A stretch of DNA of 64,000 nucleotides from Alphaproteobacteria bacterium (GTDB taxonomy: Bacteria > Pseudomonadota > Alphaproteobacteria > JBFXJJ01), in contig JBFXJJ010000005.1 of assembly GCA_050175015.1 (NCBI GenBank), positions 108,953-172,952 of the forward strand, read 5' to 3'. This document shows positions 18,295 through 63,744 of this stretch, piece after piece. Numbering within the stretch: position 1 is the stretch's first letter; each line of letters starts with the position of its first letter. Under the pieces are notes generated by a model. The model searched no databases, was not told where the DNA came from, and saw nothing but the letters and a program-made list of their open reading frames with translations. The position numbers were made by a program, and so were the translations under genes.

Positions 18295-21200
18295 CTAAAC
18301 AGCTCTGGCGTGCCAGGTTTGCTCAAGTGTTGAAGCTAATGCATTGTTCAAGGTTTCGTCTTCGCTTATACTAGACATTCCTTGAGGATTAAATGATGAC
18401 ATCGCCTGTACCAACAAATCTACGCTGCTGCGATCAAGTTCAAAGCCGTCAGATATTGTAAACTGATCAATTTGAGCATCATCACTGCCATACCAGTTAT
18501 TAAACACGATAGCATCACTACTGCCCATAATTGATACTTTAAGGTTTTGTCCTTGTTGACTGAACCACAATTCATCATAATCAGCATTTGATATGTTCAT
18601 AATATCCGTGCCATCAGCATCTTGATTAACAATGCTGTCAACACCATCACCTCGTGCAAACTCATAAGTATCATTGCCAGCGCCACCGTAGAGCGTATCA
18701 TTACCGTCACCGCCACGTAAAGTATCAGCACCAGCACCGCCAATTAACACGTCGTTATCAGCTCCGCCTTCAAGAATATCATCTCCGGCATCACCTCTTA
18801 GGTAATCATTAGCCGAACCACCGAGTATGGTATCATTGCCGTTGTTACCATAAGCAACAACTCGAACCGTTGAGTTGGAACCATTAATAACGTCATCTCC
18901 GGCTGAACCAATAACATTCTCAATTGAAGTTGCCGCTAGGTCTAAAGTCATTGCTGTTTGCAGGGTTGCAACATCGGAACCTTCACCACCATTGATCTCA
19001 ATGTCATCGCTGTCAATGTAAAGACTATCATTACCGTCGCCGCCACGTAAAGTATCAGCACCAGCGCCGCCAATTAACACGTCGTTATCAGCTCCGCCTT
19101 CAAGAATATCATCGCCGGCATCACCTCTTAGGTAATCATTAGCCGAACCGCCTAGTATGGTATCATTGCCGTTGTTACCATAAGCAACAATTCGAACCGT
19201 TGAGTTAGAACCATTAATAACGTCATCTCCAGCTGAACCATTAACATTTTCAATTGAAGTTGCCGCCAAGTCTAAAGTCATTGCTGTTTGCAGGGTTGCA
19301 ACATCTGAACCTTCACCCCCACTTATTTCAACATCATCGCTGTCAATGTAAAGACTGTCATTACCGTCGCCGCCACGTAAAGTATCAGCACCAGCACCGC
19401 CAATTAACACATCGTTATCAGCTCCGCCTTCAAGTATATCATCTCCGGCATCACCTCTTAGGTAATCATTAGCCGAACCGCCTAGTATGGTATCATTGCC
19501 GTTGTTACCATAAGCAACAACTCGAACCGTTGAGTTAGAACCATTAATAACGTCATCTCCAGCTGAACCATTAACATTCTCAATTGAAGTTGCCGCCAAG
19601 TCTAAAGTCATTGCTGTTTGCAGGGTTGCAACGTCGGAACCGTCGCCGCCATTGATCTCAACATCATCGCTGTCAATGTAAAGACTGTCATTACCGTCGC
19701 CGCCACGTAAAGTATCAGCACCAGCTCCGCCAATTAATACATCATTATCAGCTCCGCCTTCAAGAATATCATCTCCGGCATCACCTCTTAGGTAATCATT
19801 AGCCGAACCGCCGAGTATGGTATCGTTGCCGTTGTTACCATAAGCAACAACTCGAACCGTTGAGTTGGAACCATTAATAACGTCATCTCCCGTTGAACCG
19901 TTAACGTTCTCAATTGAAGTTGCCGCTAGGTCTAAAGTCATCGCTGTTTGCATAGTTGCAACATCGGAACCTTCACCACCATTGATCTCAACATCATCGC
20001 TGTCAATGTAAAGACTGTCATTACCGTCGCCGCCACGTAAAGTATCAGCACCAGCGCCGCCAATTAACACATCGTTATCAGCTCCGCCTTCAAGTATATC
20101 ATCGCCAGCATCGCCTCTTAGGTAATCATTGCCGCCAAAGCCATAGATAATATCGGAATCAGATGTGCCATAAATAACATCACGTTCTTCTGTGCCTATA
20201 ATCTCATTCGGAGCGGCTGTTAATGTTGGATCTGTTAAGTCTATATCTCCGCCGTTTTTATCCTTTAAAAATTCAACAACAGCATTAGCATCAGAATAAT
20301 GGTTTTGAACACGCATTGTATCGTTACCATCATTTATCGATAAAACTAAATCATTGCCATCACGGGTGAACGTAACATCAGTAACCGAAAGTCCTGTCTT
20401 GAGCATAATAACATCGGCAACATCTCCTGTTTCGATAATAGTATCGTGATCAGAACCTGTGCCAAACAAATAAGTGTCAAATGAACCATGGCCACCCATT
20501 AAAATGTCGTTGCCTTCACCTCCGTCTAGAATATCATTACCAGCGAGGGTTATTAAAGTGTCATCGCCTGTGCCGCCAAATACATTGTCATCACCCGTGC
20601 CACCGGTAATATTATCATCACCACCCATACCAACTAACGTGCAGCCTAAATCATTGCCCGTTAAAGTTTCAGCTTCATCGGTGCCGTATTGTGGGAGGTT
20701 GGTTAAATCGCCAATATTAATAGAAAAATCATCAAAATTAATTTTCTCAATACGGTAGCCACTATCAGTAAGATCATATTGTCCGTATATATCAACGTGT
20801 TCAAAAGTGCTGTTGAGATAGATCTTCATTGTAGTATTTTCTTGAAAGAACGTAACATTTGAAGCAGATAAGCCTCCTGTAATGTAAAGAGTATCATAAC
20901 CTGATTCTTCTCTTATGGTATCAACTCCATAACCTATACCAAAAATATATGTGTCGTTATTAGAACCTCCTCGAAGATTATCATTCCCAGATCCGCCATC
21001 TAGAGTATCATTGCCTTCGTCACCATAAAGGACATCATTTCCAGAACCACCATACAAAATAACATCATCACTATCACCATAGAGACGGTCATCATCATCA
21101 CCGCCATATAAAATATCATGACCTTTTCCAGCATAAAGGCGATCATTTCCACTGCCTCCATCTAGAATGTCATCACCGTCGTCACCATAGAGATGGTCAT

Positions 21201-23505
21201 CGCCACTGCCGCCATATAAAATATCATTGCCTTTATAGCTATTTATAATGAGGGCAACTGTAGAATTAGAGCCATCAATAATATCATTGCCTGTAGAGCC
21301 GCGCGCTTCTTCAATGTTAGAAGCAGTTAAATTAATGAACATAGCTTCTTGTAAAATGACTGCGTCGTAGCCATCTCCACCATCTATTATTGTATCTGCG
21401 GCATCAATGTATAAAATATCATCACCAGCTCCACCATAAAGTTCGTCAGCGCCAGAGCCTCCGACCAAAGTATCATCACCTGCACCGCCATAGATTTTGT
21501 CAGCGCCAGTGTCGCCATTTAAGCTGTCATTGCCAGTGCCTCCTTTAAGAGTATCATTACCTTCTCTGCCAGTTATAGTGAGGTCAGCAGCTGAGTTAGA
21601 ACCATCAATAATATCATAACCTGTAGAGCCAAGAGCCTTTTCAATATTGGAGGCCGCTAAATCAAAGGTAATTGCTTCTTGTAAATAAACAGTGTCTATG
21701 CCGTCGCCGCCATCTATTATTGTATCTGCGGCATCAATTTGAATTGTATCATTGCCAGCCCCGCCATAAAGTTCATCAGCGCCAGAGCCTCCGACCAAAG
21801 TATCATCACCAACTCCACCCTTAAGTGTGTCATTGCCGTCATTCCCAGCTAAAGTAAGACCTACCGTTGAGTTGGAACCATCAATAATATCGTCGCCTGT
21901 AGAGCCATAAACTTTCTCAATATTGGATGAAGTTAAATCAAAAGTTCTTGCTTCTTGCAAATATGCTGTATCATCTCCATCACCACCATCTATTATGGTA
22001 TCGGCAGCATCAATATATAATTTATCATTTCCAGCCCCGCCATAAAGTTCATCAGCGCCAGATTCGCCATAAAGAGTGTCTCTTCCAGAACCACCATATA
22101 TTTTATCGTTGCCATTTCCTCCACGAAGACGTTCCCCTGTGGAGTTGGCATACATTATATCTGCATCATTGTTGAAGGTGATTTTTTCAACTAAATTTCC
22201 TCCAAAGTGGTTTTTAACCGTTATCTGGTCTTGGCTGTCAATTTTATTGATAACCAAATCATTATCAGAGCAAGTTTCTACATAATCTTCAATATTACCT
22301 GTTATCTTTATCGTATCAGTTCCGCTTTCATCATAGATACGGTCTTGACCATCGCCAGCAACAAATTGATAGATATTGTTTTCTGTACCGCCAAGCAGAA
22401 TATCATCACCAATTCCGCCATTTAAGGTCTTAGCGCTGCTGGTGCCATAAATTATGTCAGAATTGTTATTAAAGGATATTTTTTCTATGGCACTACCATC
22501 AAAGTTATTGGTAACAGTTATTTTATCTCCTGTTGTGTTTTCAATAACTAAATCATTGCCAGAGCGGTAGGCGTTATAATCTGCAATATCTTCATTAACA
22601 ACTATGCTGTCATTATCACCACTGTCATCAAATATGGTATCTTCCCCATCACCTGAGTTAAAAACATAAGTATCGTTTCCTGCCCCACCATTAAGAACAT
22701 CGTTGCCCGCAAAACCTATGATTTTATCATCACTTGTTGTGCCAATAAGAGTTTCTGCACCATTGTTTCCTATCAACAATTTGCTGCCATTATCTCTTGT
22801 TGCAGAAACCGAGACACTTAAACTTGCTTCATCGTAATTTACAGAAAAATTGTTAGCATCTCCGATTTCGAAAATAATATTATTAAGTTTTTTTGCTGTT
22901 AACTCATTGTATAAATTATCTATTGCTTGGAATCTTAAAACACTAAGAGGACCGTTATCCTCTATAAATCCGTTAGGGTTAGTTCCATGAAAACCGTTAT
23001 TAGAAAAAGACTCTAAATAATAATCTCTGCCATCTTTTTTGGGAATTGAGCTATAAATATTAGTATTGAAATTAAATTTGCCAAGGAGAAATGAAGTAAA
23101 AGTGTTGCAACAAGGTCCTTCGGTGTCATAATCAATCCCCTCACCATTTAGTCTTAAGCCATCCATTAATTTGGCATAAAATAGAGCTTTTTTAAAGCAT
23201 TCTATTGCAACATCAGAAGATTCTAGATGGACATATCTTGCATTAAAATATTCTATTTCTGCTGTATTGGTGCCACTACCCCAAACAAAGTTTGAATCAT
23301 AGCTGGTTTGATATATATCTCCAGAAAATGTTTCAAATTTAAATTTCATACCTTCTGTGAGATTACCTTTAGTTACTTCAACATTAGTTATTTTTATACT
23401 ACCATCATCTTTTGTTTCGACTAGCCGAAAACCACTATGGCGGCTCATATCTACTAACGGAACATCAAAATCTTCAAAAAATATTTCAAAACTGTAACTA
23501 ATCAT
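18295..23505 (-). CDS. Large RTX calcium-binding T1SS substrate with a unique ~240-aa N-terminal head
   Basis: Many GGxGxDxLx nonapeptides; C-terminal LWFSQQGQNL...LVQAMSSF RTX tail; no Sec signal. Confidence 0.93.
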   Translation of the reverse strand: MISYSFEIFFEDFDVPLVDMSRHSGFRLVETKDDGSIKITNVEVTKGNLTEGMKFKFETFSGDIYQTSYDSNFVWGSGTNTAEIEYFNARYVHLESSDVAIECFKKALFYAKLMDGLRLNGEGIDYDTEGPCCNTFTSFLLGKFNFNTNIYSSIPKKDGRDYYLESFSNNGFHGTNPNGFIEDNGPLSVLRFQAIDNLYNELTAKKLNNIIFEIGDANNFSVNYDEASLSVSVSATRDNGSKLLIGNNGAETLIGTTSDDKIIGFAGNDVLNGGAGNDTYVFNSGDGEDTIFDDSGDNDSIVVNEDIADYNAYRSGNDLVIENTTGDKITVTNNFDGSAIEKISFNNNSDIIYGTSSAKTLNGGIGDDILLGGTENNIYQFVAGDGQDRIYDESGTDTIKITGNIEDYVETCSDNDLVINKIDSQDQITVKNHFGGNLVEKITFNNDADIMYANSTGERLRGGNGNDKIYGGSGRDTLYGESGADELYGGAGNDKLYIDAADTIIDGGDGDDTAYLQEARTFDLTSSNIEKVYGSTGDDIIDGSNSTVGLTLAGNDGNDTLKGGVGDDTLVGGSGADELYGGAGNDTIQIDAADTIIDGGDGIDTVYLQEAITFDLAASNIEKALGSTGYDIIDGSNSAADLTITGREGNDTLKGGTGNDSLNGDTGADKIYGGAGDDTLVGGSGADELYGGAGDDILYIDAADTIIDGGDGYDAVILQEAMFINLTASNIEEARGSTGNDIIDGSNSTVALIINSYKGNDILYGGSGDDHLYGDDGDDILDGGSGNDRLYAGKGHDILYGGDDDDRLYGDSDDVILYGGSGNDVLYGDEGNDTLDGGSGNDNLRGGSNNDTYIFGIGYGVDTIREESGYDTLYITGGLSASNVTFFQENTTMKIYLNSTFEHVDIYGQYDLTDSGYRIEKINFDDFSINIGDLTNLPQYGTDEAETLTGNDLGCTLVGMGGDDNITGGTGDDNVFGGTGDDTLITLAGNDILDGGEGNDILMGGHGSFDTYLFGTGSDHDTIIETGDVADVIMLKTGLSVTDVTFTRDGNDLVLSINDGNDTMRVQNHYSDANAVVEFLKDKNGGDIDLTDPTLTAAPNEIIGTEERDVIYGTSDSDIIYGFGGNDYLRGDAGDDILEGGADNDVLIGGAGADTLRGGDGNDSLYIDSDDVEINGGEGSDVATMQTAMTLDLAATSIENVNGSTGDDVINGSNSTVRVVAYGNNGNDTILGGSANDYLRGDAGDDILEGGADNDVLIGGAGADTLRGGDGNDSLYIDSDDVEINGGDGSDVATLQTAMTLDLAATSIENVNGSAGDDVINGSNSTVRVVAYGNNGNDTILGGSANDYLRGDAGDDILEGGADNDVLIGGAGADTLRGGDGNDSLYIDSDDVEISGGEGSDVATLQTAMTLDLAATSIENVNGSAGDDVINGSNSTVRIVAYGNNGNDTILGGSANDYLRGDAGDDILEGGADNDVLIGGAGADTLRGGDGNDSLYIDSDDIEINGGEGSDVATLQTAMTLDLAATSIENVIGSAGDDVINGSNSTVRVVAYGNNGNDTILGGSANDYLRGDAGDDILEGGADNDVLIGGAGADTLRGGDGNDTLYGGAGNDTYEFARGDGVDSIVNQDADGTDIMNISNADYDELWFSQQGQNLKVSIMGSSDAIVFNNWYGSDDAQIDQFTISDGFELDRSSVDLLVQAMSSFNPQGMSSISEDETLNNALASTLEQTWHARAV
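18700..20130 (-). repeat. 330-bp (110-aa) tandem repeat in RTX gene, four full copies plus a partial
   Basis: TC(A/G)CCTCTTAGGTAATCATT recurs at 18791, 19121, 19451, 19781, 20111. Confidence 0.92.
22221..22748. repeat. Shared RTX linker, copy 1 (in full-length gene)
   Basis: Near-identical DNA to 24304-24831 and 26410-26878; encodes IGTTSDDKIIG...KIDSQDQI. Confidence 0.93.
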
Positions 23506-29056: not shown

Positions 29057-29160
29057 TTATGCCGCAGATTTAATTTTTGATGTTATTTTATCACCATTTG
29101 ATAAAATGGTGTTATCGTAGAAAAGTTTTGTTCTTGTTCTGTTAAAGGTGTTTCGCTCAT
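29057..29160 (-). pseudogene. Possible vestigial head of a fourth cassette
   Basis: GGGGAG RBS and ATGA-coupled start after ankyrin gene; MSETPLTEQEQ, then another frame LSNGDKITSKIKSAA*. Confidence 0.4.
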
Positions 29161-30791
29161 AGATTAACTCCCCAATGATTAGTATTTTTTTTATCTTTAA
29201 ATAAGTAGATTATTATAAAAAATAAAAAATTTGATAAATGAATAAAAAATAAAAAAAACATAGTATATGTCATAGCTGAATATGGTATTTCAATTTGAAG
29301 CTTTTTAGGATCACAAAACATCAAAAATAAAGAGAACATGCTTAAAGAATAAAAAATAATTAAACCTGAAAACAAGGTTGTTATTGGTGGATTATTTTTT
29401 TGTAAATCTATTTTAGTAAAAAAAGCATCTATTGGAAACACAGTTGAACATATTATAATGATTAAAAGATAAACATAAATATAACTATCTGAGCTTAAAT
29501 GTCTTATAGAAAAAGTTTGTTTATTGTAGTCGAAAAGCCAAACGTTCTTCCATATATCAGTTAAATAAATAGGACCGCTACAAGAATTGCCATAGTAAGC
29601 CCTGATAAAATCACCTATAAAAATAGCAATAAAAAATACCCAAAATGCAATTTCTCCTTTTTTTGATTTGCCTAAAAAACATTCCTCATGTTGAGGCATA
29701 CGATATCTAAAAAAAGTAGACACAACAAAAATTAAAGCTAAGGTAACAGGGATAGTAGCTATAGCATATTGGTTTTTCTGCCATAGCAATACAACCTGTA
29801 ATAAGATTATGTAGGAAACACTAAAAACACTATAACAACGATAAAGCAACCCTGTTTTAAATTTATTGATGGCTTTATCTGCTGTCTCACCGTTATTATC
29901 CTTAATATTAGCATCGGCTCCAGCATCAATAAGCGTTTGCATAATTTCAATATTATTATTAGTGCTGGCTATAAATAAGGCGGTTTGCCCTTCATTGTCT
30001 TTAATATTAACCTTTGCTCCATTAGCAATAAGTAACTTTACAACATCTAAACGATTGAAAGTCGTCGCATAAAATAAAGCCGTACATCCATTATTATCAA
30101 GAGCATTAATATTGGCTCCAGATTTTATCAAAAAATCAACAATGTCTTTATTTTTCGAGGCTAACATCAATGGAGTAATGCCGTCATTATTCACTTGATT
30201 GATGTCAAGTCCGAGATTTAAAAATGTTTTTATAATTTCAGGATTAGAATTGCAGGCAGCAAGATGAAGCGCTGAAGATGCTTTTGCTGTTTTATCATTA
30301 ACATTTGCTCCTAATCTAATTAAAGTTTTTATAACTTCAGGGTTTTTATTAAGCCTAGCTGCAAGTAATATGGGGGTTATCTCATGTATGAAGAATTTGT
30401 GCTTTGTTTCATCAAATTCAATGTTAACACCTTTAAACTTAATATTAAGATTATCTCCTGATTTAACGGCTTTTTCTATGTGCTCAGAGGAGCCATAGAT
30501 TATAATATCTAAAAAACTTTTTTGAAAAAAACCTAATTTTTGAAAAAAACCTAATATATCGGCCAAAATTGATAGAGGAATATAACTAATAATAAAAGAA
30601 AAAACGAAGTAGAAAATTATTTCTTCAATAGAGAAAGATTGGAAAAACTTGAAAAAAATTAAAGCTACATATAAAGGTGTATATATTAAAAGCCACATAG
30701 ATAGAAAGATTCTATTAAAATTCAGCGAATTGAATCTAAGAGATAATTTATCTTTAGAAAAAAGATTTAGCAGCAAATAGCGTATGTTCAT
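29157..30791 (-). CDS. Ankyrin-repeat multi-pass membrane protein
   Basis: TPILLAA, SALHLAA, GITPLMLA, GCTALFYA, GQTALFIA repeats between TM regions. Confidence 0.85.
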   Translation of the reverse strand: MNIRYLLLNLFSKDKLSLRFNSLNFNRIFLSMWLLIYTPLYVALIFFKFFQSFSIEEIIFYFVFSFIISYIPLSILADILGFFQKLGFFQKSFLDIIIYGSSEHIEKAVKSGDNLNIKFKGVNIEFDETKHKFFIHEITPILLAARLNKNPEVIKTLIRLGANVNDKTAKASSALHLAACNSNPEIIKTFLNLGLDINQVNNDGITPLMLASKNKDIVDFLIKSGANINALDNNGCTALFYATTFNRLDVVKLLIANGAKVNIKDNEGQTALFIASTNNNIEIMQTLIDAGADANIKDNNGETADKAINKFKTGLLYRCYSVFSVSYIILLQVVLLWQKNQYAIATIPVTLALIFVVSTFFRYRMPQHEECFLGKSKKGEIAFWVFFIAIFIGDFIRAYYGNSCSGPIYLTDIWKNVWLFDYNKQTFSIRHLSSDSYIYVYLLIIIICSTVFPIDAFFTKIDLQKNNPPITTLFSGLIIFYSLSMFSLFLMFCDPKKLQIEIPYSAMTYTMFFLFFIHLSNFLFFIIIYLFKDKKNTNHWGVNL

Positions 30792-31086: not shown

Positions 31087-33279
31087 ATGGTCTCCCAAAT
31101 AATCTCTCCCAATTTTGAAGCATCAAAAAGCGAACAAAAAGCCCCCAATCTTGATACAGGATTGATTGCTCTGGTTATGATTGGCCGCTTTTTTGAACGT
31201 CCTGCTGATCCTTTCCAAATTAAGCATAGTTTAGGCAAAGGTGAGTTACTGCTTTCGGAAATAGATATTCTGCGGGCAGCAAAGCTGCTTGATTTAAAAG
31301 CCAAAGCTATCTCTTCTGATTTTGACCGTATTGCCTCCAAAACGCCGCTGCCTTGTATTGCTCAGAGCAATGATGGGGAGTGGTTTATTATTGGACGGGC
31401 TGCGGAAGATAAAATCTTAATTCATAAGCCTGGGCAAAAAAATCCAGAAATCATCGCTAAAGAAGCTTTTATGAGTTTATGGTCTGGGCGTTTGATTCTT
31501 TTTACCAGCCGCAAAACCACCGTTGGCGGACGCCGCCGTTTTGATGTCTCGTGGTTTATTCCTGCGGTTGTTAAATATCGCCGTTTATTTGCCGAGGTTC
31601 TTCTGGCATCGTTTTTCTTGCAACTCTTTGCTCTAGTTTCACCTTTGTTGTTTCAGGTTATTATTGATAAGGTTCTGGTGCATCACGGCCGCAGCACGCT
31701 TGATGTTATCTTTTTTGCTTTATTATCTATCGCCATTTTTGAAAGTGTTTTAGGCGCACTTCGCACTTATGTGTTTTCGCATACGACTAACCGAATTGAT
31801 GTCGAACTTGGAACACAGTTGTTTCGGCATTTAACAGGACTGCCTTTGGCTTATTTTGGCGCCCGCCGTGTTGGTGATACGGTTGCTCGTGTCAGAGAGC
31901 TTGAAAATATCCGCAGTTTTTTAACTGGTTCGGCTTTGACATTAGTAATCGATCTTGCTTTTACATTCGTCTTTTTTACAGTGATGTTTTATTATGCCCC
32001 TATTCTTTCTTGGATTGTGGTTGGCTCTATTCCTTTTTATGTTGTCTTATCCTTGCTAATTTCACCGCTCCTGCATCAAAGAGTTGAAACCAAATTTAAG
32101 CACGGCGCAGAAAACCAAGCCTTTTTAGTAGAAACCATTACAGGAATAGAAACCGTTAAAGCTATGGCTTTGGAACCACAGTCTCACCGCCGCTGGGAAG
32201 AACAGCTTGCGGCTTATGTTGCTAGCTCTTTTAAGGTTAGCAATCTTGGCAATGTCGGACAGCAGACAATTCGCTTAATTCAAAAAGCGACTTCAGCTTT
32301 AACTCTGTTTTTTGGCGCCAAATTGGTTATGGATAACAGCTTGTCCGTTGGGCAGCTTGTAGCATTTAATATGCTGGCGGGCAATGTTTCTTCCCCAATC
32401 CTGCGTTTAGCTCAGGTGTGGCAGGATTTTCAGCAAGTTAGAATATCGATTGACCGTTTAGGTGATATTTTAAATAATCCTCCTGAGCCTTCGGTTGAAA
32501 CTGGTAGAGCTCCTACAACAGCGCTTAAAGGTCATGTTGTTTTTGAAAATGTTTCTTTTCGTTATGATCCTTCGGGTTCACGCATTTTATCCGATATTAA
32601 ACTTGATATTATGCCTGGTGAAACTATCGGCATTGTTGGTTCCTCAGGTTCGGGCAAAAGTACGCTCACCAAACTAATTCAGAGACTTTATATTCCAGAG
32701 CAAGGACGGATTATGGTTGATGATATTGATATTTCAACCGCAGATCCTGCTTGGCTCAGAAGGCAGATAGGTGTCGTTTTACAGGAAAATATGCTGTTCA
32801 ACCGCTCGGTTAGAGATAATATTGCTATTACCAATCCTTCCGTTCCTATGGAACGGGTCATTGAAGCTTCTAAGCTTGCAGGAGCTCATAGCTTTATTGC
32901 GGAACTTTCTGATGGTTATGACACAATAATAGGCGAAAGAGGTACCTCGCTTTCGGGCGGTCAACGCCAGAGAATTGCAATCGCTAGAGCTTTGCTTACC
33001 AATCCCCGAATTCTAATATTTGATGAAGCAACTTCCGCTCTCGACTATGAATCTGAAAAAGCAATTCAAGATAATATGGAGAAAATCTGTCAAGGCAGGA
33101 CAATGTTTATTATTGCGCATAGATTATCAACGGTGCGAAGCTGTTCTCGCATTATTGTGATTGAACGCGGCGAAATTGTTGAAATCGGAAGTCATAAGTC
33201 ATTATTAAAATCAGGCGGGCGCTATGCTAACCTGTGGCGCTGCCAAACTGATGATGCCGTTAAAGAGGTGTCATTATGA
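31087..33279 (+). CDS. hlyB: Type I secretion ABC transporter, HlyB family
   Basis: C39-like N-domain without the catalytic Cys (LDTGL), GDTVARVRELENIR, GSSGSGKST, LSGGQRQR, IFDEATSALD. Confidence 0.95.
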   Translation: MVSQIISPNFEASKSEQKAPNLDTGLIALVMIGRFFERPADPFQIKHSLGKGELLLSEIDILRAAKLLDLKAKAISSDFDRIASKTPLPCIAQSNDGEWFIIGRAAEDKILIHKPGQKNPEIIAKEAFMSLWSGRLILFTSRKTTVGGRRRFDVSWFIPAVVKYRRLFAEVLLASFFLQLFALVSPLLFQVIIDKVLVHHGRSTLDVIFFALLSIAIFESVLGALRTYVFSHTTNRIDVELGTQLFRHLTGLPLAYFGARRVGDTVARVRELENIRSFLTGSALTLVIDLAFTFVFFTVMFYYAPILSWIVVGSIPFYVVLSLLISPLLHQRVETKFKHGAENQAFLVETITGIETVKAMALEPQSHRRWEEQLAAYVASSFKVSNLGNVGQQTIRLIQKATSALTLFFGAKLVMDNSLSVGQLVAFNMLAGNVSSPILRLAQVWQDFQQVRISIDRLGDILNNPPEPSVETGRAPTTALKGHVVFENVSFRYDPSGSRILSDIKLDIMPGETIGIVGSSGSGKSTLTKLIQRLYIPEQGRIMVDDIDISTADPAWLRRQIGVVLQENMLFNRSVRDNIAITNPSVPMERVIEASKLAGAHSFIAELSDGYDTIIGERGTSLSGGQRQRIAIARALLTNPRILIFDEATSALDYESEKAIQDNMEKICQGRTMFIIAHRLSTVRSCSRIIVIERGEIVEIGSHKSLLKSGGRYANLWRCQTDDAVKEVSL

Positions 33280-34694
33280 TTAAGCCTAAAATGCCTGAAA
33301 AAATTTTGAGCATAGCTTTAAAAGCAAAGACGTTTTTTATTACGGTTTGGCAGTTTTTACAATCTCTTGCCGAAGGACCCGAGCAAAAGACTTTAGAAAA
33401 ACAGTTTTTACCTGCCGTTTTGGAAATTACAGAAACGCCGCCCTCTCCTCTTGGCAGAACTATGATTTATGTAATTATAACCGTCTTTACGACAGCCTTG
33501 TTATGGGCAACTTTTTCTAAAGTTGACATTGTAGCGATTGCTCCAGGAAAGTTAGTTCCAAGCGGTTATAGTAAAATAATTCAGCCGCTAAAAATTGGCA
33601 TTATTGCTAATATTTTTGTGGAAGACGGGCAAAAAGTTGTCAAAGATGAACCTCTGATTGAAATCAGAGCCGAAGAAACTGGGGCTAATAAAATTCGTCT
33701 GGGGCAGGAGCTTAAGTTTGCTAAGCTTGATGTTGCAAGGCTTTCAGCGCTTCTAGAGCCTATTCCCGAAAAGGCATTCAATCCAGATGATGTAGAATCT
33801 GAACTGCTATCCCAGCATAAAACATTGCTAATCGGAGAACTAGAAAAGTATCGTGCCAGCTTATCGGTTATTGAAAAACAAATTGTGCAAAGTGAAGCCG
33901 AAAAAGCGGTATCTGAAGCCGAAATCAGAAAAATTGAACGTATGCTACCCAATCTTAAAGAAAGGGTGGACGCTAAATATAAGCTGAAAGAACAAGGAAT
34001 TGTTGCTCCTATGACATATTTAGAATTAGAACAAGATTTGATTGATTTAGAAGAGCAGCTTAATATTCAGAAAAAAAGTGTCGCCGAAATTAAAGCGCAG
34101 CTTGAAACTCAAAAAATGCAATATACTGAAACCAAAAACTCATTTAAAAATGATGTGCTTTACCGCATTAATGAAGCTCGCAACAATGTCTCGATGCTAA
34201 AAGAAGAATTATCTAATGCTGAGTGGCTAGAAGAAATGACAACTATAAAGGCTCCAGAAGCCGGCATTATTCAAGAGTTGTCAGTTCATACTGTTGGCGG
34301 AGTTGTTACAGAAGCTCAGCCGTTAATGAAACTTGTTCCCAAGGATAGTGTTTTAGAAGTCGAAGCTATGGTGCTAAACAAAGATATCGGCTTTGTTAGG
34401 GAAGAACAGCAGGCAGTAATCAAAATCGATAGTTTTCCTTTCACCAAATATGGCACAATCGATGCAACCGTTATTGATATATCACCTGATGCGATTGAAA
34501 ATGAAGAACTGGGATACGTCTATAAGGCAAAGCTTAGCCTTGCAAAAGACCATCTGATGGTAGAGGGCAAAAAAGTTATGCTCTCCCCGGGTATGACTAT
34601 CGTCGCCGAAATCAAAACAGGACAACGACGCCTTATCGAATTCCTGCTCTCCCCTATGATTAAATATACCGCCGAAAGTATGAGAGAAAGATAA
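33276..34694 (+). CDS. hlyD: Type I secretion membrane fusion protein, HlyD family
   Basis: FLPAVLEI.ETPPSP, coiled coil, FPFTKYG, LSPGM...EIKTGQRRLIEFLLSP...RER. Confidence 0.95.
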   Translation: MIKPKMPEKILSIALKAKTFFITVWQFLQSLAEGPEQKTLEKQFLPAVLEITETPPSPLGRTMIYVIITVFTTALLWATFSKVDIVAIAPGKLVPSGYSKIIQPLKIGIIANIFVEDGQKVVKDEPLIEIRAEETGANKIRLGQELKFAKLDVARLSALLEPIPEKAFNPDDVESELLSQHKTLLIGELEKYRASLSVIEKQIVQSEAEKAVSEAEIRKIERMLPNLKERVDAKYKLKEQGIVAPMTYLELEQDLIDLEEQLNIQKKSVAEIKAQLETQKMQYTETKNSFKNDVLYRINEARNNVSMLKEELSNAEWLEEMTTIKAPEAGIIQELSVHTVGGVVTEAQPLMKLVPKDSVLEVEAMVLNKDIGFVREEQQAVIKIDSFPFTKYGTIDATVIDISPDAIENEELGYVYKAKLSLAKDHLMVEGKKVMLSPGMTIVAEIKTGQRRLIEFLLSPMIKYTAESMRER

Positions 34695-34933: not shown

Positions 34934-35707
34934 ATGAAACAAAATATAGAAAATTTAATCGATATTATGGCACTTTTGCGCACCCCAGAAAAAGGCTGTC
35001 CTTGGGATATAAAACAGAGTTTTGATACTATAGCGCCTTACACCATTGAAGAAGCCTATGAAGTTTATGATGCTATCGAAAAAAATGATATGGCAGCGTT
35101 AAAAGATGAGCTGGGAGATTTATTGCTTCAGGTAGTATATCATTCCCGTATGGCAGAAGAACAAAATATCTTTAGTTTTAATGATGTTGCCGCAATTATT
35201 TGTGAAAAGATGATTAGAAGGCACCCCCATGTTTTTGGAGAATCTGATAAAAAAGATTGGCATGAAAAACCAATGGCATCATGGGAAACCCAGAAAGCCA
35301 AAGAAAGGCAAAAACAAAAAACTTTAGACGGTGTTGCACTTGCTCTCCCTGCTCTTATGAGAGCCATAAAACTTCAGGCAAGAGCCGCTAGAGTTGGCTT
35401 TGATTGGCCTGATGTTAAACAAGTGTTTGATAAGATTAAAGAAGAAATCTTGGAACTAGAAGTCGAAATTGAAAATAACAACCAGATAAATATTGTTGAT
35501 GAAATGGGCGACTTGCTTTTTGCGCTTGCTAATCTTGCTCGCAAATTAAATGTTGATGCTGAACAGGCTTTAAGAAAAACTAATCAAAAATTCATTAATA
35601 GGTTTGAATATATTGAAAAAAAACTGGCTGAAAAAGGACAGAAGCCTGAAGATGCAACTTTAGATGAAATGGAAGCTTATTGGCAGGAAGCTAAAAAATA
35701 TACCTAG
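34934..35707 (+). CDS. mazG: Nucleoside triphosphate pyrophosphohydrolase
   Basis: GCPWD, IEEAYEV, DELGDLLLQV, RRHPHVF, GFDW. Confidence 0.95.
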   Translation: MKQNIENLIDIMALLRTPEKGCPWDIKQSFDTIAPYTIEEAYEVYDAIEKNDMAALKDELGDLLLQVVYHSRMAEEQNIFSFNDVAAIICEKMIRRHPHVFGESDKKDWHEKPMASWETQKAKERQKQKTLDGVALALPALMRAIKLQARAARVGFDWPDVKQVFDKIKEEILELEVEIENNNQINIVDEMGDLLFALANLARKLNVDAEQALRKTNQKFINRFEYIEKKLAEKGQKPEDATLDEMEAYWQEAKKYT

Positions 35708-35933
35708 AACGAAGTTCGTTCATATGAGAGGTTTTAAGGTTGTATAAAAAGTTTTGCTTTTGCTTTTACAAAAAGCAAAGCTGTTGGCAAGCATTTACCG
35801 TAAGGCAAAAAAATTCGTATAATTAAATAGCTTGTATTCTAAAAACGGCTTTTTATTTAAAATTTTCTGTTTTGTAAACTTTTGTTATATTTTATTACAA
35901 TATATTAACAATAATAATTAGTAAAATAACATT

Positions 35934-36020
35934 TTATTGCAAAATATTATAACCATAATTAGGATAAAACATAGTTATGGTTAAAAATAATATCATTATA
36001 AAATTAAATTTACTAAACAT
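35934..36020 (-). CDS. Inverted start/signal-peptide module of locus 1 (28-aa OFF-state peptide)
   Basis: GAAAGG RBS; MFSKFNFIMILFLTITMF-YPNYGY-NILQ*; YPNYGY is encoded by the inverted repeat. Confidence 0.8.
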   Translation of the reverse strand: MFSKFNFIMILFLTITMFYPNYGYNILQ

Positions 36021-36537
36021 GGTCTTGACCTTTCATAAAAATGGTAACAAGATTTTAATTTATATTTGTTTTAATTCTGCGCTAGTTTCTAGCAATTATC
36101 AAGAATAAAAAATGCGCGAAATATTATTTTTTTAATATTTAAGATTTAATTTATTAAAATTTGTTACAAAACTATAAACTACAAAGAAGTTTTAAATTGA
36201 ATATAAAAGCAGATACTTCCTATTGAGTAATACATTGAAATTATTGTATTTTATTCCAAGCAAAACTGTTGGGTAACTTGAGGGTAACATTATTTACTAT
36301 AATTTAAAAATATAGCAAAGATGTTTTAAGATTAATATATTGATAAATAATATTTTATTACCATATTTATAAATATTTTAGGGTAACATATAGGTAACTT
36401 TTAAATATTATTTTTTAATATAATTATTTTTTGCATAAATTTAACAATCACATAACACATTGATTTATAATATTTTTAATATAAATATTTTTATTAAAAT
36501 GCTTTAATTTTAAGGATATATCCTAATTATGGTTATA
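35948..36537. promoter_or_regulatory. Invertible switch 1 (19-bp IRs, 552-bp internal segment), OFF orientation
   Basis: TATAACCATAATTAGGATA 35948-35966 and TATCCTAATTATGGTTATA 36519-36537; promoter-like TTGATA-N17-CAGAAT on minus strand 36102-36074. Confidence 0.85.
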
Positions 36538-39227
36538 GTCAAACAGCCATCACAACCTGCTCAGAATTACAGGCGATAAACAATAATCCATCTGGAGATT
36601 ACTATCTAACAAATAATATCGATTGTACTAGCATTGAAAATTTCGAACCTATAGCGTCTTTTTCTGGCTACTTTAATGGTATGGGGTTCACCATATCAAA
36701 TCTAAAAATCAGTCGAAGTTCACAAGACAATATTGGACTGTTTGGCTCTACTAACAATGCTGTTATTATTAATGTTGTATTATCTAATATTAATATAAAG
36801 GGGCAAGCTAATGTTGGCGGATTAGCGGGGTATATGAACAAGTCCTATGTTAACGGCGTTAAAATTTCTGGCTTGGTTGAAAGCAGCAGTTCTTGTGTTG
36901 GAGGTTTATCGGGACGCACAGACAACACTGGTATCTATAGCTGTTCTTTTATTGGTCATAGCAAAGGTCTTAGTGTTGATACAGGTGGAATAGTAGGATA
37001 TTTCCTTACAAATTCAAGTCTTTCTAATAGTTATGCTTCAGGTGTAGTTGAAGGCACGGGATTGGTTGGAGGTTTAGTTGGACGTATGGAAATGAATACG
37101 TCTATAACTAACAGTTACGCAGATAGCTCTGTTACAGGAAGTGATCTGCATGTCGGAGGCTTGGTAGGCTGGCAGGCTTCATCTTCTGTAATTAATAGAA
37201 GTTACGCCGCTGGCGCTGTTTCGGGACCAGAAGGATACGTTGGAGGTTTAGTTGGTTGGGATTATGATAACACTCTGACTGTTACATCATCTTATTGGGA
37301 TATGCAAACTTCTGGACAAGCGACAACAGCAGGAAACAAGGGGACAGGATTAACTACCACTCAAATGAAAACACAAAGCTCTTTTGTTGATTGGAATTTT
37401 GTTGATGTTTGGAAAGCACCAGAAACTAACTATGCAAAATTAAGTTGGGAAGAGACCGTTCCAATTTCAACCTGCGAGGGACTCCAAAATATAAGCAACA
37501 ACCTTGGCGGCAGTTATTATTTAGTAAATGACATTGATTGCAGCGATACAGTTAACTGGAATAGTGGCAAAGGCTTCAGACCTATTGGGCTAAGTGATTT
37601 TTGGAACATAAGTTCTTTTCGTGGAACATTTGATGGTAAAGGTTACAAGATAACAAATCTTTATATTAATAGAACGGACGCCAGCTGTGATCTTGGTTAT
37701 GGATTGTTCGGTTACGCTATACAGGCCATCATTCAGAATGTGGGAATTGAGCAAGCTAATATTAAAGGGCGTTGGATAACAGGAGCATTGATTGGCTTGG
37801 CTACCAGTAATGTTTTTGTAACCAATTGCTATTCTTCAGGAGATATTTCTGCACTAAAACAAGGGGGGCTTGCTTGCGGGCATGACGGCTTATCTCGTGC
37901 TGGAGGACTAATTGGCCAATTGTGGAGCAGCAACTCTAGAATTTATAATGTTTATTCTAATGCTAAAGTCAGCGGTACAGGTGAAGAAATTGGAGGTTTA
38001 GTTGGAGTATTTTATGGATATGCCAATTCAACATCTTATATAAAAAATTCGTATTCTACAGGACTTGTTGCCTGCTCTACCAATTACTGCGGCGGTTTTT
38101 TGGGGCATTTATATGAAAACGCTTATATTATCAACAGTTATTGGGATATGCAAACTTCAGGAAAAGCCTCAAGTGCTGCGGGAGTTGGCAAATCTACATC
38201 AGATATGAAAAGTAAAAGCACATTTTCAGGCTGGGACTTTACTAATGTTTGGTATCTTATTTACGGTGATTATCCACGATTAAAAACCCCCTATCCTGTT
38301 TGCACAGGCTGTGCAGTATTAGAAGATGGCGTGTGTGTAGCGGGCGGCAGTTGTTCTGGTGAACACCCGACGTGTAATGTTACGGGCTGGGTTGGACTTT
38401 GCGAATGTTCATCTAGCACTTGCGGTGATGGTCGAGCTTGTTCTGACGGTGTTTGCGTAAACTGTGATTCTGACTCAGCTTGCGGAGCTTGTGGTTGTGG
38501 GACATCTCAAAAACCAACGGGAACAGGCGCTTGTATGAACAACAGTATGTGCTGCCCTGGCGAATGCAATATGGCAACGGGGGCTAACTCTTGCGGTTAT
38601 AGCGACGACTTATGCCCAACAGGTGTATCCTGCAATCGCTCAACCCTTTCCTGTTGTGCAAATGAGCTTCCTTATTGGCGAAGTGAAAATTGCCGATCTT
38701 GTTCATCGACCAGTGGACTTTCTGGAAATTGTCAAACGCCTGGTATGATGTGCAACTCTCGTTACGACTGTATCGTATGTCTAGCTAATAGCCAGTGTAC
38801 TTGTGAAGACGGTGAAGTAGCAGACGGTATGGGTGGCTGTGTTGAACCTTACTGTTACAGTGACAGCGAATGCGGAGTTGATGAATGCGTTAATGCTGGC
38901 TTGTATAATGCTTTTTGCTCTAACTGCAGTTCAGTAAACAAAGTATGGCACAGCACTTCTTGTGAGAGCTGTCCTGCTGGTTCGGTATATTCTAACGGCG
39001 TTTGCGTATGCTCTGACGGCAAGATGTGGAACTCAGCCAACAATCTGTGCTTATCTCGAGGCGTTATCAGCTCAGGCGGCATCTTAGACTTAAAAACATC
39101 TAATACCATAAATGCGTCAGATGAGAGATACGCCAGAATTAAACGTAAAATGAACCGCATAACCAGCAGTGCTTACGCTGGAGCAGCGCAGAAAAAAATT
39201 GAAGAGGAGGAGGAATCCCAAGAGTAA
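36519..39227 (+). CDS. GLUG-repeat, Cys-rich exported protein body (headless until switch 1 inverts)
   Basis: Frame open from 36498 with no ATG until 36681; repeated VGGLVG motifs, SYWDMQTSG, Cys-rich C-terminal third. Confidence 0.85.
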   Translation, partial: YPNYGYSQTAITTCSELQAINNNPSGDYYLTNNIDCTSIENFEPIASFSGYFNGMGFTISNLKISRSSQDNIGLFGSTNNAVIINVVLSNINIKGQANVGGLAGYMNKSYVNGVKISGLVESSSSCVGGLSGRTDNTGIYSCSFIGHSKGLSVDTGGIVGYFLTNSSLSNSYASGVVEGTGLVGGLVGRMEMNTSITNSYADSSVTGSDLHVGGLVGWQASSSVINRSYAAGAVSGPEGYVGGLVGWDYDNTLTVTSSYWDMQTSGQATTAGNKGTGLTTTQMKTQSSFVDWNFVDVWKAPETNYAKLSWEETVPISTCEGLQNISNNLGGSYYLVNDIDCSDTVNWNSGKGFRPIGLSDFWNISSFRGTFDGKGYKITNLYINRTDASCDLGYGLFGYAIQAIIQNVGIEQANIKGRWITGALIGLATSNVFVTNCYSSGDISALKQGGLACGHDGLSRAGGLIGQLWSSNSRIYNVYSNAKVSGTGEEIGGLVGVFYGYANSTSYIKNSYSTGLVACSTNYCGGFLGHLYENAYIINSYWDMQTSGKASSAAGVGKSTSDMKSKSTFSGWDFTNVWYLIYGDYPRLKTPYPVCTGCAVLEDGVCVAGGSCSGEHPTCNVTGWVGLCECSSSTCGDGRACSDGVCVNCDSDSACGACGCGTSQKPTGTGACMNNSMCCPGECNMATGANSCGYSDDLCPTGVSCNRSTLSCCANELPYWRSENCRSCSSTSGLSGNCQTPGMMCNSRYDCIVCLANSQCTCEDGEVADGMGGCVEPYCYSDSECGVDECVNAGLYNAFCSNCSSVNKVWHSTSCESCPAGSVYSNGVCVCSDGKMWNSANNLCLSRGVISSGGILDLKTSNTINASDERYARIKRKMNRITSSAYAGAAQKKIEEEEESQE

Positions 39228-61186: not shown

Positions 61187-63184
61187 TTATGGCACTGCCT
61201 CAACTTCTTTATCGGCAAAACCCGCATAAGCACTGTTAGTAATCCTGTTCATTTTACGTTTAATACGATCATACCGACTTTCAGGTGTGTTCTGTGTTGC
61301 CTTGCTTTTGGTATCAATAACACCTTTGGTCGAGATTAGACTTTTCTTAGCACAAATGTTGCTGGCTGAGTTCCACAATTTTCCATCGCTGCAAAGGCAG
61401 ATACCATTATGATACGTCGAACCACTAGGACAACTCTCACACGATCCACTAACCCAAACCTTGTTAGTTGAACTGCAATTTGAACAAAAGGCGTTATATT
61501 GCCCTGCATTAATACATTTATCGACACCGCATTCACTATCCGCAAAGCACAAAGGTTCAACGCAACCTCCTGAACCGTCAGCGACAAAACCATCATCACA
61601 AGTACATTGCATATTGGCAAAACAACTTACGCAATCATAATTGGAGTTGCACATCATACCTTGTGTTGTGCAATTACCAGAAAGTCCACTGGTAGAAGAG
61701 CAAGAACGGCAATTTTCACTTCGCCAATAAGGAAGCTCATTCGCACAACAAGAAAGGGTTGAGCGATTGCAGGATACTCCTGTTGGGCATAAGTCATCAC
61801 TGTAACTACAGGAATTTGCGCCTGTTGCCTTGTTACATTCACCTACACAGCACAAACTATTGTTCATACAAGTTCCCGTTCCCGTTGGTTGTTGTGAGGT
61901 TCCGCAACCACAAGCGCCACAACCATCAGAGGCATCACAGTCAGCACAAGTTCCTGTTGCCGAACAGCTTCGTCCCGCATCGCAGCTTGATGATGAACAT
62001 TCACAAATACCGTTGTTATTTGTTACAACACAGTTTGGGTGTTCTCCTGAGCAACTATCACCAGCTACGCAGATGCCGTCATTCATAACTGCACATCCCG
62101 TGCAGTTTTGTTTTCTCAATTCAGGGTAATTGTTGGTTGGCATATACCAAACGGTATCAAAATCCCAGCCCGAAAACGTATTTTGTGTTTTCAGGTCTGT
62201 CGTAGTTTTACCTATACCTCCTGAACTTGTTGCTACACCGGAAATCTGAGTATCCCAATAGCTGTTAATGCCACAGGAACCGCTACACAAAGCAATTAAG
62301 CCGCCTACATATCCATTGACACCACTGCTTCCATTATAGCTACCATAACCACTGCCACTTCCTCCTGCTCCAGCTCTAGCTCCAGAAACAGCAACCACAG
62401 CATAACTATTATTGATACTATTAGAAGAAGAATATCCCACAAGACCACCAACATAACCTCCACCGCCGCCGCCGCCGCCAGCACCACCATAGTATCCATT
62501 ACTACCATTGCCACCATTGGCTCCAGACGCAACTCCTGTAACATATACATCATTTAAAATAGTACTGTTTGCATAACCTATTATGCCGCCAATAGCACCG
62601 CCACTACCGCCACCAGCACCACCATAACTCCAAGTATTAATGCTCGCACCGCTACCGCAACCACCACCGCCATTACCAAATCCTCCACTGCCACCAGAAC
62701 CACAATTGGCATTGCCACCATTGCCACCTCTACGATTACTGATATCTCCGTAACCGCTAGAATCACTATAAACTCCACCACAGCCACATCCTCCCCGACC
62801 AGAAGCACTGCCAACACCGCCAACTCCAACCGAACCACTTGCTGAATTGGTGCCATTTTGCCCATTAGCACCAGAAAAATTAATCCCAGACAAACCGATA
62901 TTAAAAATTTCAGCGCCGTCAGTATATCCAAAAAGACCGATATAATAATTAGTTGGCCTGTTGATTACCAAATTACTTATTGCAAATCCTCTGCCATTAA
63001 GCTTACCTAGAAAAGGTGCCGTTTTACTACCAATAGGCACAAAGCCAGCGCCGCTATTCCAATTGATGGTATCACTGCAATCTATATCGTTTGCGAGGTA
63101 GTAGCTGCCTGCAAGATTATTGCTCATTGCTTGCAGTCCTACGCAGGTTGTAATGACTGTTTGACTATAACCATTACTAGGATA
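61187..63184 (-). CDS. GLUG-type, Gly-rich and Cys-rich exported protein body (headless until switch 2 inverts)
   Basis: YPSNGYSQTVITTC continues in frame into the 646-aa ORF; Cys-rich part and RY.RIKRKMNRIT.SAYAG tail shared with locus 1. Confidence 0.85.
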   Translation of the reverse strand, partial: YPSNGYSQTVITTCVGLQAMSNNLAGSYYLANDIDCSDTINWNSGAGFVPIGSKTAPFLGKLNGRGFAISNLVINRPTNYYIGLFGYTDGAEIFNIGLSGINFSGANGQNGTNSASGSVGVGGVGSASGRGGCGCGGVYSDSSGYGDISNRRGGNGGNANCGSGGSGGFGNGGGGCGSGASINTWSYGGAGGGSGGAIGGIIGYANSTILNDVYVTGVASGANGGNGSNGYYGGAGGGGGGGGYVGGLVGYSSSNSINNSYAVVAVSGARAGAGGSGSGYGSYNGSSGVNGYVGGLIALCSGSCGINSYWDTQISGVATSSGGIGKTTTDLKTQNTFSGWDFDTVWYMPTNNYPELRKQNCTGCAVMNDGICVAGDSCSGEHPNCVVTNNNGICECSSSSCDAGRSCSATGTCADCDASDGCGACGCGTSQQPTGTGTCMNNSLCCVGECNKATGANSCSYSDDLCPTGVSCNRSTLSCCANELPYWRSENCRSCSSTSGLSGNCTTQGMMCNSNYDCVSCFANMQCTCDDGFVADGSGGCVEPLCFADSECGVDKCINAGQYNAFCSNCSSTNKVWVSGSCESCPSGSTYHNGICLCSDGKLWNSASNICAKKSLISTKGVIDTKSKATQNTPESRYDRIKRKMNRITNSAYAGFADKEVEAVP

Positions 63185-63744
63185 TATCCTATGTTTTTAA
63201 GCATTTTAATAAAAATTTTTTGATTAAAAATATTAAAAATCAATATGTTATGCGTTTGTTAAATTTTGGTAAAAAAGGGTTATATTAAAAAATAATGTTT
63301 AAACGTTACCTATATGCTACCCTAAAAAGATATAAATTTTCATATAAAACACCTTAATATCAATATGTTATATAAAAACAATATTTTTTAAATAACATAT
63401 TTTAAGAAAGAATAGATACCCGTATGTTACCCATCAGTTATTTTTATAAAAATATTTAGTTATTTCAATGTGTTATCTTTGTTGTTTTTTGTTGTTAAAA
63501 TGCAAAAAAGATTGTTAAAAAGATGTTACAAAAAGTTTAAGAATAAAAAGCTACCAAAACTTTTTTATCCAAATTAGCTGCTTAGTTAAAAAATATTATA
63601 CTTGCCAAAGTCGCAAAATCACGGCAAAATAAAGCCAAGTATAATAATATATTTTAATGAAAGGATAAGGTTATGAAAAATAAATATAAGCTTATTAGTA
63701 TAATGTTTTTGATTATAACGCAGCTGTATCCTAGTAATGGTTAT
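63167..63744. promoter_or_regulatory. Invertible switch 2 (18-bp IRs, 542-bp internal segment), OFF orientation
   Basis: ATAACCATTACTAGGATA 63167-63184 and TATCCTAGTAATGGTTAT 63727-63744; promoter-like TTGCCA-N17-CAAAAT 63602-63630. Confidence 0.85.

Follow-up and report, generated by a model that had tools for sequence, protein, structure and literature searches.

The window discussed here (the whole stretch of DNA that was analysed, 64,000 nucleotides of contig JBFXJJ010000005.1 from a metagenome-assembled alphaproteobacterial genome) carries two short segments bounded by inverted repeats, which we read as invertible switches of surface-protein genes, and our principal conclusion concerns the machinery that may turn them over. 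From the arrangement of the sequences, we think it fairly likely that a domesticated heterobivalent integrase, which we call IntS, works with integration host factor (IHF) in a single-arm intasome that inverts each promoter/signal-peptide cassette, and a single tamed integrase of this kind probably flips all of the roughly fourteen surface-protein switches found in the genome. Every complete switch contains the same ordered array, in which three IHF-type boxes (A1 to A3) alternate with two tandem GGGTAAC pairs (B1 and B2), and these pairs are very probably arm-type integrase sites. The parts of the two window switches are as follows.

35948..35966, no strand: distal inverted repeat of switch 1, a putative core-type site (TATCC-N7-GGTTA, inward) that forms a perfect 19-nt inverted repeat with 36519-36537
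35967..36020, minus strand: ATG (36018-36020) and signal-peptide exon of switch 1, pointing away from the gene (OFF)
36074..36102, minus strand: promoter-like TTGATA-N17-CAGAAT of switch 1, from conserved blocks in the 12-copy alignment and the pick of a promoter scan (a scan at chance level)
36228..36240, minus strand: A3 box of switch 1, IHF-like by sequence, one mismatch to WATCAANNNNTTR
36271..36288, plus strand: B2 pair of switch 1, GGGTAAC-N4-GGGTAAC, proposed arm-type sites by pair pattern
36333..36345, minus strand: A2 box of switch 1, exact match to the IHF consensus WATCAANNNNTTR
36381..36398, plus strand: B1 pair of switch 1, GGGTAAC-N4-AGGTAAC, proposed arm-type sites by pair pattern
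36453..36465, minus strand: A1 box of switch 1, exact WATCAANNNNTTR, midway between the core and the B1 pair
36519..36537, no strand: gene-proximal inverted repeat of switch 1, 19 nt, encoding YPNYGY
36519..39227, plus strand: controlled gene 1, a GLUG / M26-N-like surface protein, without its own start codon at the repeat
61187..63184, minus strand: controlled gene 2, a paralogue of gene 1, without a start codon at the repeat
63167..63184, no strand: gene-proximal inverted repeat of switch 2, a perfect 18-nt inverted repeat with 63727-63744
63238..63250, plus strand: A1 box of switch 2, exact WATCAANNNNTTR by consensus match
63305..63322, minus strand: B1 pair of switch 2, by pair pattern
63358..63370, plus strand: A2 box of switch 2, exact WATCAANNNNTTR by consensus match
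63415..63432, minus strand: B2 pair of switch 2, by pair pattern
63463..63475, plus strand: A3 box of switch 2, by sequence, one mismatch to WATCAANNNNTTR
63602..63630, plus strand: promoter-like TTGCCA-N17-CAAAAT of switch 2, from alignment and promoter scan
63673..63726, plus strand: ATG and signal-peptide exon of switch 2, in OFF orientation by sequence and in-silico inversion
63727..63744, no strand: distal inverted repeat of switch 2, 18 nt

The first-pass annotation, which started from these two switches, had placed the IHF-type boxes and the GGTAAC boxes correctly throughout, and the gaps that it gave from the gene-proximal repeat to A1, A2 and A3 (53, 173 and 278 nt, the same in both switches) are exact, as is its count of two exact and one single-mismatch WATCAANNNNTTR per switch. 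The GGTAAC boxes start at 36272, 36283, 36382 and 36393 in switch 1 and lie, on the other strand, at 63305-63321 and 63415-63431 in switch 2; when the two switches are aligned pairwise, the islands of identity fall exactly on the A and B boxes. Across the window the IHF consensus WATCAANNNNTTR matches 21 times as against 10.5 +/- 3.0 in shuffled sequence, with none of 100 shuffles reaching 21, and since this is only a twofold enrichment, the consensus is on its own weak evidence. The pattern GGTANC-N4-RGGTANC matches four times (36272, 36382, 63305 and 63415), with 0.00 expected from shuffles. Controlled gene 1 matches the Pfam families PF05342 (3.1e-10) and PF07581 (1e-07), and no Pfam match was found for controlled gene 2 at E<=0.001. 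Inverting switch 1 in silico brings its ATG to a position 54 nt ahead of the repeat and in frame with the gene.

Both belong to a larger family. The genome (2.53 Mb in 49 contigs, 35.5% G+C, 99.4% complete) contains 13 complete switches, the two in the window and 11 elsewhere, each of about 550 bp, and all 13 are OFF in the assembly. In each segment an exon with an ATG and a hydrophobic signal peptide, preceded by a Shine-Dalgarno-like AAGGG and a conserved promoter of the TTGCAA-N17-CAAAAT type, faces away from the adjacent gene, and all 12 gene-linked switches, when inverted in silico, yield a fusion in frame, its ATG standing 54 nt ahead of the repeat (60 nt in a single copy). The repeats are themselves coding and specify YPxxGY; in the copy on contig C4 a stop codon stands in the inner half of the proximal repeat, and inversion swaps out that very half. 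Because exon and promoter point outward, the genes lack starts and the simulated fusions are in frame, we take the switches to be promoter-plus-signal-peptide cassettes, with both window copies OFF. Promoter scans did pick the conserved promoter, but their number of matches equals the shuffle expectation, so that the scan adds nothing. Reading the repeat-flanked segments as miniature inverted-repeat transposable elements or other transposons was rejected, given that the repeats lie in frame within coding sequence and that inversion restores the signal peptide in all 12 gene-linked cases. The 80 loci fetched for relatives of the GLUG protein are at most 47% identical.

A fourteenth switch lies outside the window, split over the starts of contigs C11 (1-19) and C21 (1-127), and there the A1 end of the array abuts a distal-type flank, which is the ON orientation; its gene product is cysteine-rich and unlike the GLUG family, and a mixture of orientations in the sample may be why the contigs break there. 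The repeat TATCC-N7-GGTTA is an imperfect dyad; within any one switch its two arms share their central 6 nt, and no two of the 14 switches have these 6 nt in common. At repeat position 13, 8 of 13 switches have a G in the gene-side copy and an A in the distal one (both window pairs are G/G), an asymmetry in the outer half-site that stays put on inversion. Contig C10 has a third copy of its switch repeat (80112-80129, identical overlap AATAAC) in the 20 bp that separate two open reading frames, at a distance of 7.4 kb from the switch; this copy is in inverted orientation to the proximal repeat and might be a relic or a partner in a larger, alternative inversion. One of the complete copies, C21:16223-16795, has no gene behind it and keeps most of its boxes, yet its A and B boxes are decaying (TGGGAAC, TAACTATATAAT); a nucleoside hydrolase gene follows it, and a 354-aa integrase gene beside tRNA-like sequence lies 3.7 kb off.

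Conservation was judged on a MAFFT alignment of 12 copies, and anchored measurements were taken on the 13 complete ones. Over the 13 switches, mean pairwise identity is 0.73 for A1, 0.78 for A2, 0.66 for A3 and 0.85 and 0.83 for the B pairs, as compared with 0.38-0.50 in the five spacer windows and 0.35 expected from base composition, which bears out the earlier remark that the DNA between the boxes has diverged. From the inverted repeat to A1 there are 66 nt in nine copies, 55 in three and 67 in one, and from A1 to B1 there are 59-61 nt in 12 copies and 72 in one; the remaining steps (B1 to A2, 47-49 nt; A2 to B2, 50-52; B2 to A3, 42-44) hold in all 13, as does the 11-bp period within pairs, which is found in 26 of 26. 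The distance from A3 to the -35 box is 118-119, 130-133 or 143-144 nt, that is, it falls into classes about 12 nt apart. Throughout the array, then, length changes are either of at most 2 nt or in steps of 11-12 nt, roughly one helical turn. The two tandem B pairs are 110 bp apart; measured from the core, their boxes are at 115-150 and 223-259 nt in every one of the 13 switches, and the centre of A1 is about 68 bp from the overlap in the 10 copies that have 66-67 nt between repeat and A1; in nine of those 10, A1 is about 70 bp from the B1 pair, and in the C21 copy about 81 bp. The first-pass annotation had staked its case on spacing that further copies might have lost, and in all 13 complete switches the spacing is kept. 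We conclude that the boxes and their spacing are apparently under selection; since the copies are related by descent, the spacing record represents few events, not 13 independent ones.

What the B boxes are is suggested by where else such sequences occur. GGTAnC is kept in 48 of the 52 boxes, and the strict pair GGTAnC-N4-RGGTAnC is found 24 times in the 2.53-Mb genome, with 22 of these matches in switches and one upstream of an integrase gene with an Arm-DNA-bind_3 domain, a distribution that speaks for the first-pass suggestion of arm-type integrase sites. That outside match (C1:265186) sits within three boxes of 11-bp period, about 168-190 nt upstream of the IntS gene, and a second B-box pair follows at -54/-42 of intS, making five B boxes upstream in all; the other outside match (C2:67118) is like the GTAGCCCC boxes ahead of a different integrase. 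IntS is a member of a large P4/DUF4102-type family in the Alphaproteobacteria, in which its best relative is 63% identical, and it has matches at E <= 1e-60 in 31 other genomes of 400 in the class. For the upstream regions we used 26 fetched loci with 300 nt upstream, leaving out L214 (no upstream sequence), L216 and L222 (whose matches begin near residue 90) and rows without a locus. Looking for an 8-mer pair of 11-bp period at -100 to -30 of the int start, we found one in 24 of the 26; the same test was positive inside the gene at 2 of 26 loci and in 100 of 5200 shuffled sequences (1.9%). The arm box itself differs by integrase (TGTTAGC, TGTTACC, TGCTTCC, TGCTTAC, TGATTGC and others), and even in the same genome an IntS paralogue, an island integrase 57% identical to it, has its own TGGTTCCTG pair at -55/-44 and stands beside an apparent tRNA 3' fragment.

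In the relatives G002, G047 and G329 (the last with two islands) the pair upstream of int recurs once, 5.7-17 kb away, and all but one of the four far copies have a tRNA gene about 70 nt away. These two positions are the two ends of an integrated island, which is where the split arms of an attP site would be expected, and it is this recurrence of 11-bp pairs upstream of int and at tRNA-side island ends that leads us to assign the B box type to integrase arm sites. The B1 pair of the switches also agrees with the int-proximal arm of G002 in orientation (GGTAAC read toward the core) and in distance, which is about 125-138 nt from the core in the switches and about 125 nt from the duplicated tRNA segment in G002.

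Among rival explanations, the one that survives best is the alternative already offered in the first-pass annotation, namely that the boxes are bound by a regulator of the OmpR/PhoB type, and we regard it as unlikely. The B pairs would then be Pho-box-like sites which, with bending by IHF, control the cassette promoter and intS, and the whole array would be transcriptional. Pho boxes consist of 7-bp direct repeats with a 4-bp A+T spacer and an 11-bp period, and 26 of 26 B pairs are tandem 7-bp repeats of this period; the genome encodes eight Trans_reg_C regulators, including two (C6:6146-6871 and C23:9395-10093) about 4 kb from a switch, and the A3 to -35 distance runs in its 12-nt classes. 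On such an account, however, one would have to accept a nearest B pair at least about 175 nt upstream of the -35 box and no B pair at any other promoter, with 22 of 24 in switches and the other two by integrase-type boxes, and one would have to pass over the equivalent pairs that 24 of 26 relatives have ahead of int and that reappear at island ends on the tRNA side. The alternative is therefore weakened by the distance from -35 and by the lack of other promoters with such pairs, and what still stands in its favour is the set of eight regulators and the 11-bp tandem layout. As to the two regulators about 4 kb from switches, roughly 0.4 would be expected by chance, and the difference is not significant.

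IntS itself lies outside the window on another contig (C1:263738-265012, minus strand). It is a tyrosine integrase of 424 aa with an Arm-DNA-bind_3 domain (PF13356, 4e-13, residues 4-90), a SAM-like core-binding domain and a Phage_integrase domain (PF00589, 5.8e-19, 68.9 bits), and when it is aligned to XerH (5jjv), its TGCRKNE, HTLRHSFAS, GH and RYSH fall on equivalent motifs, so that R, HxxR, H and Y are all present. The gene has a XerD-like gene on one side and lptF/G and lptD on the other, with aroK and aroB nearby; no tRNA gene was found in the 14 kb around it, and no att repeat or island adjoins it. It is because of this housekeeping context, without tRNA or mobile-element neighbours, that we call IntS domesticated, a description that the first-pass annotation had given to its postulated integrase and that this candidate fits.

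The genome has about 16 tyrosine-recombinase genes, XerC- and XerD-like ones among them. Within 7 kb no recombinase gene is present at 12 of the 13 complete switches, and the thirteenth, on C21, is the one with a 354-aa integrase 3.7 kb away. The 354-aa integrases on C3, C8 and C21 were considered for the role and rejected, each lying beside tRNA-like sequence (by alignment) and lacking B boxes. Against the NCBIfam models for a 'tyrosine-type DNA invertase' IntS scores 27.7 where the cut-off is 221, and all 10 recombinases scanned fall far below the cut-off. The serine recombinase family PF00239 has no match in this genome, nor is there an IS110/Piv-type gene above the cut-off in it, and no Xis-like gene was seen.

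A second rival, which we find a shade less credible than the regulator, accepts that IntS and IHF bind the array and makes of them mainly a transcriptional or architectural complex, such as one that silences or activates the cassette promoter, strand exchange being left to XerC/XerD or a recombinase on a small contig. Five B boxes over the intS upstream region do suggest autoregulation, the genome does have XerC- and XerD-like genes and several other recombinases, and the ~12-nt classes suggest that the array is phased with the promoter. Yet the spacing is tightest relative to the inverted repeat and not to the promoter, 12 of the 13 complete switches have no other recombinase gene within 7 kb, and we know of no arm sites without a role in recombination for this class of integrase. 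Finally, that the boxes are functionless leftovers from the arm of an ancient att site, duplicated together with the gene family, is very improbable, for while all copies are paralogues in which shared descent alone gives some similarity, and the gene-less copy on C21 retains most boxes, spacers at 0.38-0.50 stand against boxes at 0.66-0.85 with lengths held within 2 nt, and the boxes of that gene-less copy are decaying, as expected once constraint is gone.

To return to IntS and IHF, the A boxes are conserved in the manner to be expected of IHF sites. Read in IHF orientation (WATCAA-N4-TTA), they keep TCAA and TTA better than the four bases in between, and on the 5' side they are preceded by a run rich in A. 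In the register used here, exact matches account for 18 of the 39 A boxes and single mismatches for another 18, and two of the remaining three are offset by one base. The exact consensus occurs 18 times in the 7.6 kb of switches (2.4 per kb) as compared with 402 times in the remaining genome (0.16 per kb). Both IHF subunits are encoded, with ihfA (alpha) scoring 127 against an NCBIfam cut-off of 111 and ihfB (beta) 128.4 against 119.95, and one HU-like protein is encoded as well. The earlier identification of the WATCAANNNNTTR boxes as IHF sites is thus supported by the IHF-like conservation pattern and the presence of ihfA and ihfB.

How might such a device work? A tyrosine recombinase would use the 18-19-nt inverted repeats (TATCC, a 7-bp overlap, GGTTA) as its core-type sites, the four B boxes of each switch would serve as arm-type sites for the N-terminal arm-binding domain of IntS, and at the three A boxes IHF would bend the DNA so that the arm sites come back to the two cores. 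Four IntS protomers could then occupy the four core half-sites while their N-domains hold the four B boxes, giving one tetramer, in which IHF at A1 would fold the B1 pair onto the adjacent core and IHF at A2 and A3 would steer the B2 pair to the distant core, with IntS as the presumed catalyst of strand exchange at the repeats. Since every accessory site is within the inverted segment, to the same side of a single core, the reaction would be symmetric between orientations: in both, the same single-arm (attL/attR-like) site would face a bare (attB-like) partner, and the result would be a reversible toggle. Tyrosine recombinases require identity of the overlap, and the locus-specific overlaps would confine exchange to partners of the same switch. 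On two points the first-pass annotation needs correction or lacks support. It had spoken of an attP-like scaffold, and the accessory sites are on one side of one core only, which makes the arrangement attL/attR-like, with a single arm; it had also supposed that the integrase complex controls the direction of inversion, a claim without support, for the only hints of asymmetry are the G/A difference at position 13 and the 13:1 split of orientations.

Several observations weigh against the IntS and IHF mechanism and should be set out together. The link between IntS and the switches is one of motif only, with IntS on another contig and some 16 tyrosine-recombinase genes in the genome. Both the IHF consensus and the switch DNA are rich in A+T, the latter at about 81%. 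An exact IHF consensus between arm pair and tRNA is present at just one of three tRNA-side island ends, that of G002. The array may be phased with the promoter too, given the classes of A3 to -35 distance, and the eight OmpR-family regulators, with two of them about 4 kb from a switch, have to be kept in mind. All 13 complete copies are OFF, and a single public run (contigs at ~14x, perhaps the source sample) shows only the OFF state at switch 1: one contig of the run spans 35300-36556 in OFF orientation, and there is no strand-changing joint in the 35300-37300 that was checked. Assembled contigs drop rare variants, however, so that these contigs say nothing on inversion.

The system was also found in none of the 400 genomes of the class and in none of 67 metagenome matches, and with no other genome that has it, all comparisons are between paralogues that share descent within one metagenome-assembled genome. 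In the searches behind these counts, BLAST of the switch against 40 relatives, none of them closer than class level, gave only chance-level short matches, and the composite B-A-B pattern had no match in the 400 genomes beyond the window's own genome. A metagenome scan with the B2-gap-B1 pattern returned 67 loci and not one switch; they are tandem 11-bp arrays or unrelated repeat clusters whose units, like GGGTAGC or GGGTAAC, suit the pattern, 99 being 9 x 11, and none of the 67 has an IntS-like gene, with A boxes in none among the matches listed. Among them, L122-L187, many of which are soil or peat contigs of about 60% G+C, have long 11-bp tandem arrays of the GGGTAGCCTCA type flanking a conserved GGTGGCTACCGGTTGGCTACCAGATAGCC-like centre.

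As for the surroundings in the window, 31087-34694, immediately ahead of switch 1, encodes a C39-peptidase ABC exporter and an HlyD-type fusion protein, which make up a type I secretion pair; farther from the switch are genes for a 1736-aa RTX-repeat protein (18295-23505) and an ankyrin-repeat protein (29157-30791).

The closest model for the proposed complex is the lambda Int/attP intasome, with its heterobivalent integrase, tandem arm-type sites and IHF sites H1, H2 and H'. Like lambda, the switches would combine an integrase that has an arm-binding domain at its N terminus with tandem arm-type boxes about one helical turn apart, IHF-type boxes between core and arm sites and putative inverted half-sites around a 7-bp overlap; unlike lambda, they have every accessory site to the same side of a single core, their partner sites are in inverted orientation on one chromosome, the loci number 14 where lambda has one att site, and IntS is not of the lambda type by Pfam but of the P4/DUF4102 type. 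With the P4-type island integrases IntS shares the domain set and the tandem pair upstream of int, whereas its boxes are found at 14 invertible loci and not at the two ends of an island at a tRNA gene. Global invertases such as Mpi of Bacteroides offer a precedent for one unlinked recombinase proposed to serve many surface-protein switches, the difference being that Mpi is a serine recombinase, of which this genome has none.

There are further cousins among phase-variable loci. PMC9993118 describes fimS as an invertible promoter switch with inverted repeats and IHF-type accessory sites. The present switches resemble that E. coli system (FimB/FimE, IHF, Lrp) in having an invertible promoter segment, short inverted repeats, IHF-type sites and, if we are right, a tyrosine recombinase; they differ from it in that FimB and FimE are small, without an arm-binding domain and encoded beside the switch, whereas IntS is unlinked, and in that the cassettes here also carry the start codon and signal peptide and have coding repeats. 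In the ureaplasma MBA/UU172 system, as outlined in PMC3047005, inversion joins an N-terminal expression exon to a silent gene body, and the same logic of mycoplasma and ureaplasma antigen inversions would apply here. Judged on abstracts, the papers found describe no arm-type or IHF scaffold for systems of the global-invertase or ureaplasma type, and a full-text search, likewise judged on abstracts, did not turn up the combination of an intasome-type scaffold with phase-variable inversion. The parts, in other words, are known (lambda-type intasomes, fimS with IHF, global invertases), and what appears to be new is their combination.

A broader claim, on which our own judgement is evenly divided, is that a P4-type island integrase was domesticated as the master invertase of a 14-member family of phase-variable surface proteins, that a single-arm intasome which is the same both ways has made a directional chemistry reversible, that the 6-nt overlaps act as a barcode against crosstalk, and that this would be the first natural 'invertasome' in the style of lambda Int. 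Tyrosine recombinases with an arm-binding domain usually count as markers of mobile elements. PMC8138268 presents them as the integrases of such elements and calls the domain essential for mobility, its best-known bearers being integrases of phages and of integrative and conjugative elements. If our reading is true, this organism would have an immobile, chromosomal integrase with such a domain, and the architecture of the intasome would be reusable for phase variation, which would be a warning to annotation pipelines that not every arm-binding integrase signals a mobile element. The compact design (core, IHF site and arm pair in fixed helical phase) might in turn be taken up for engineered multi-channel inversion switches. 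A directional machine would become reversible simply when its accessory sites move to one side, inside the inverted segment, and one enzyme would be able to run many surface-protein switches safely by means of their locus-specific overlaps.

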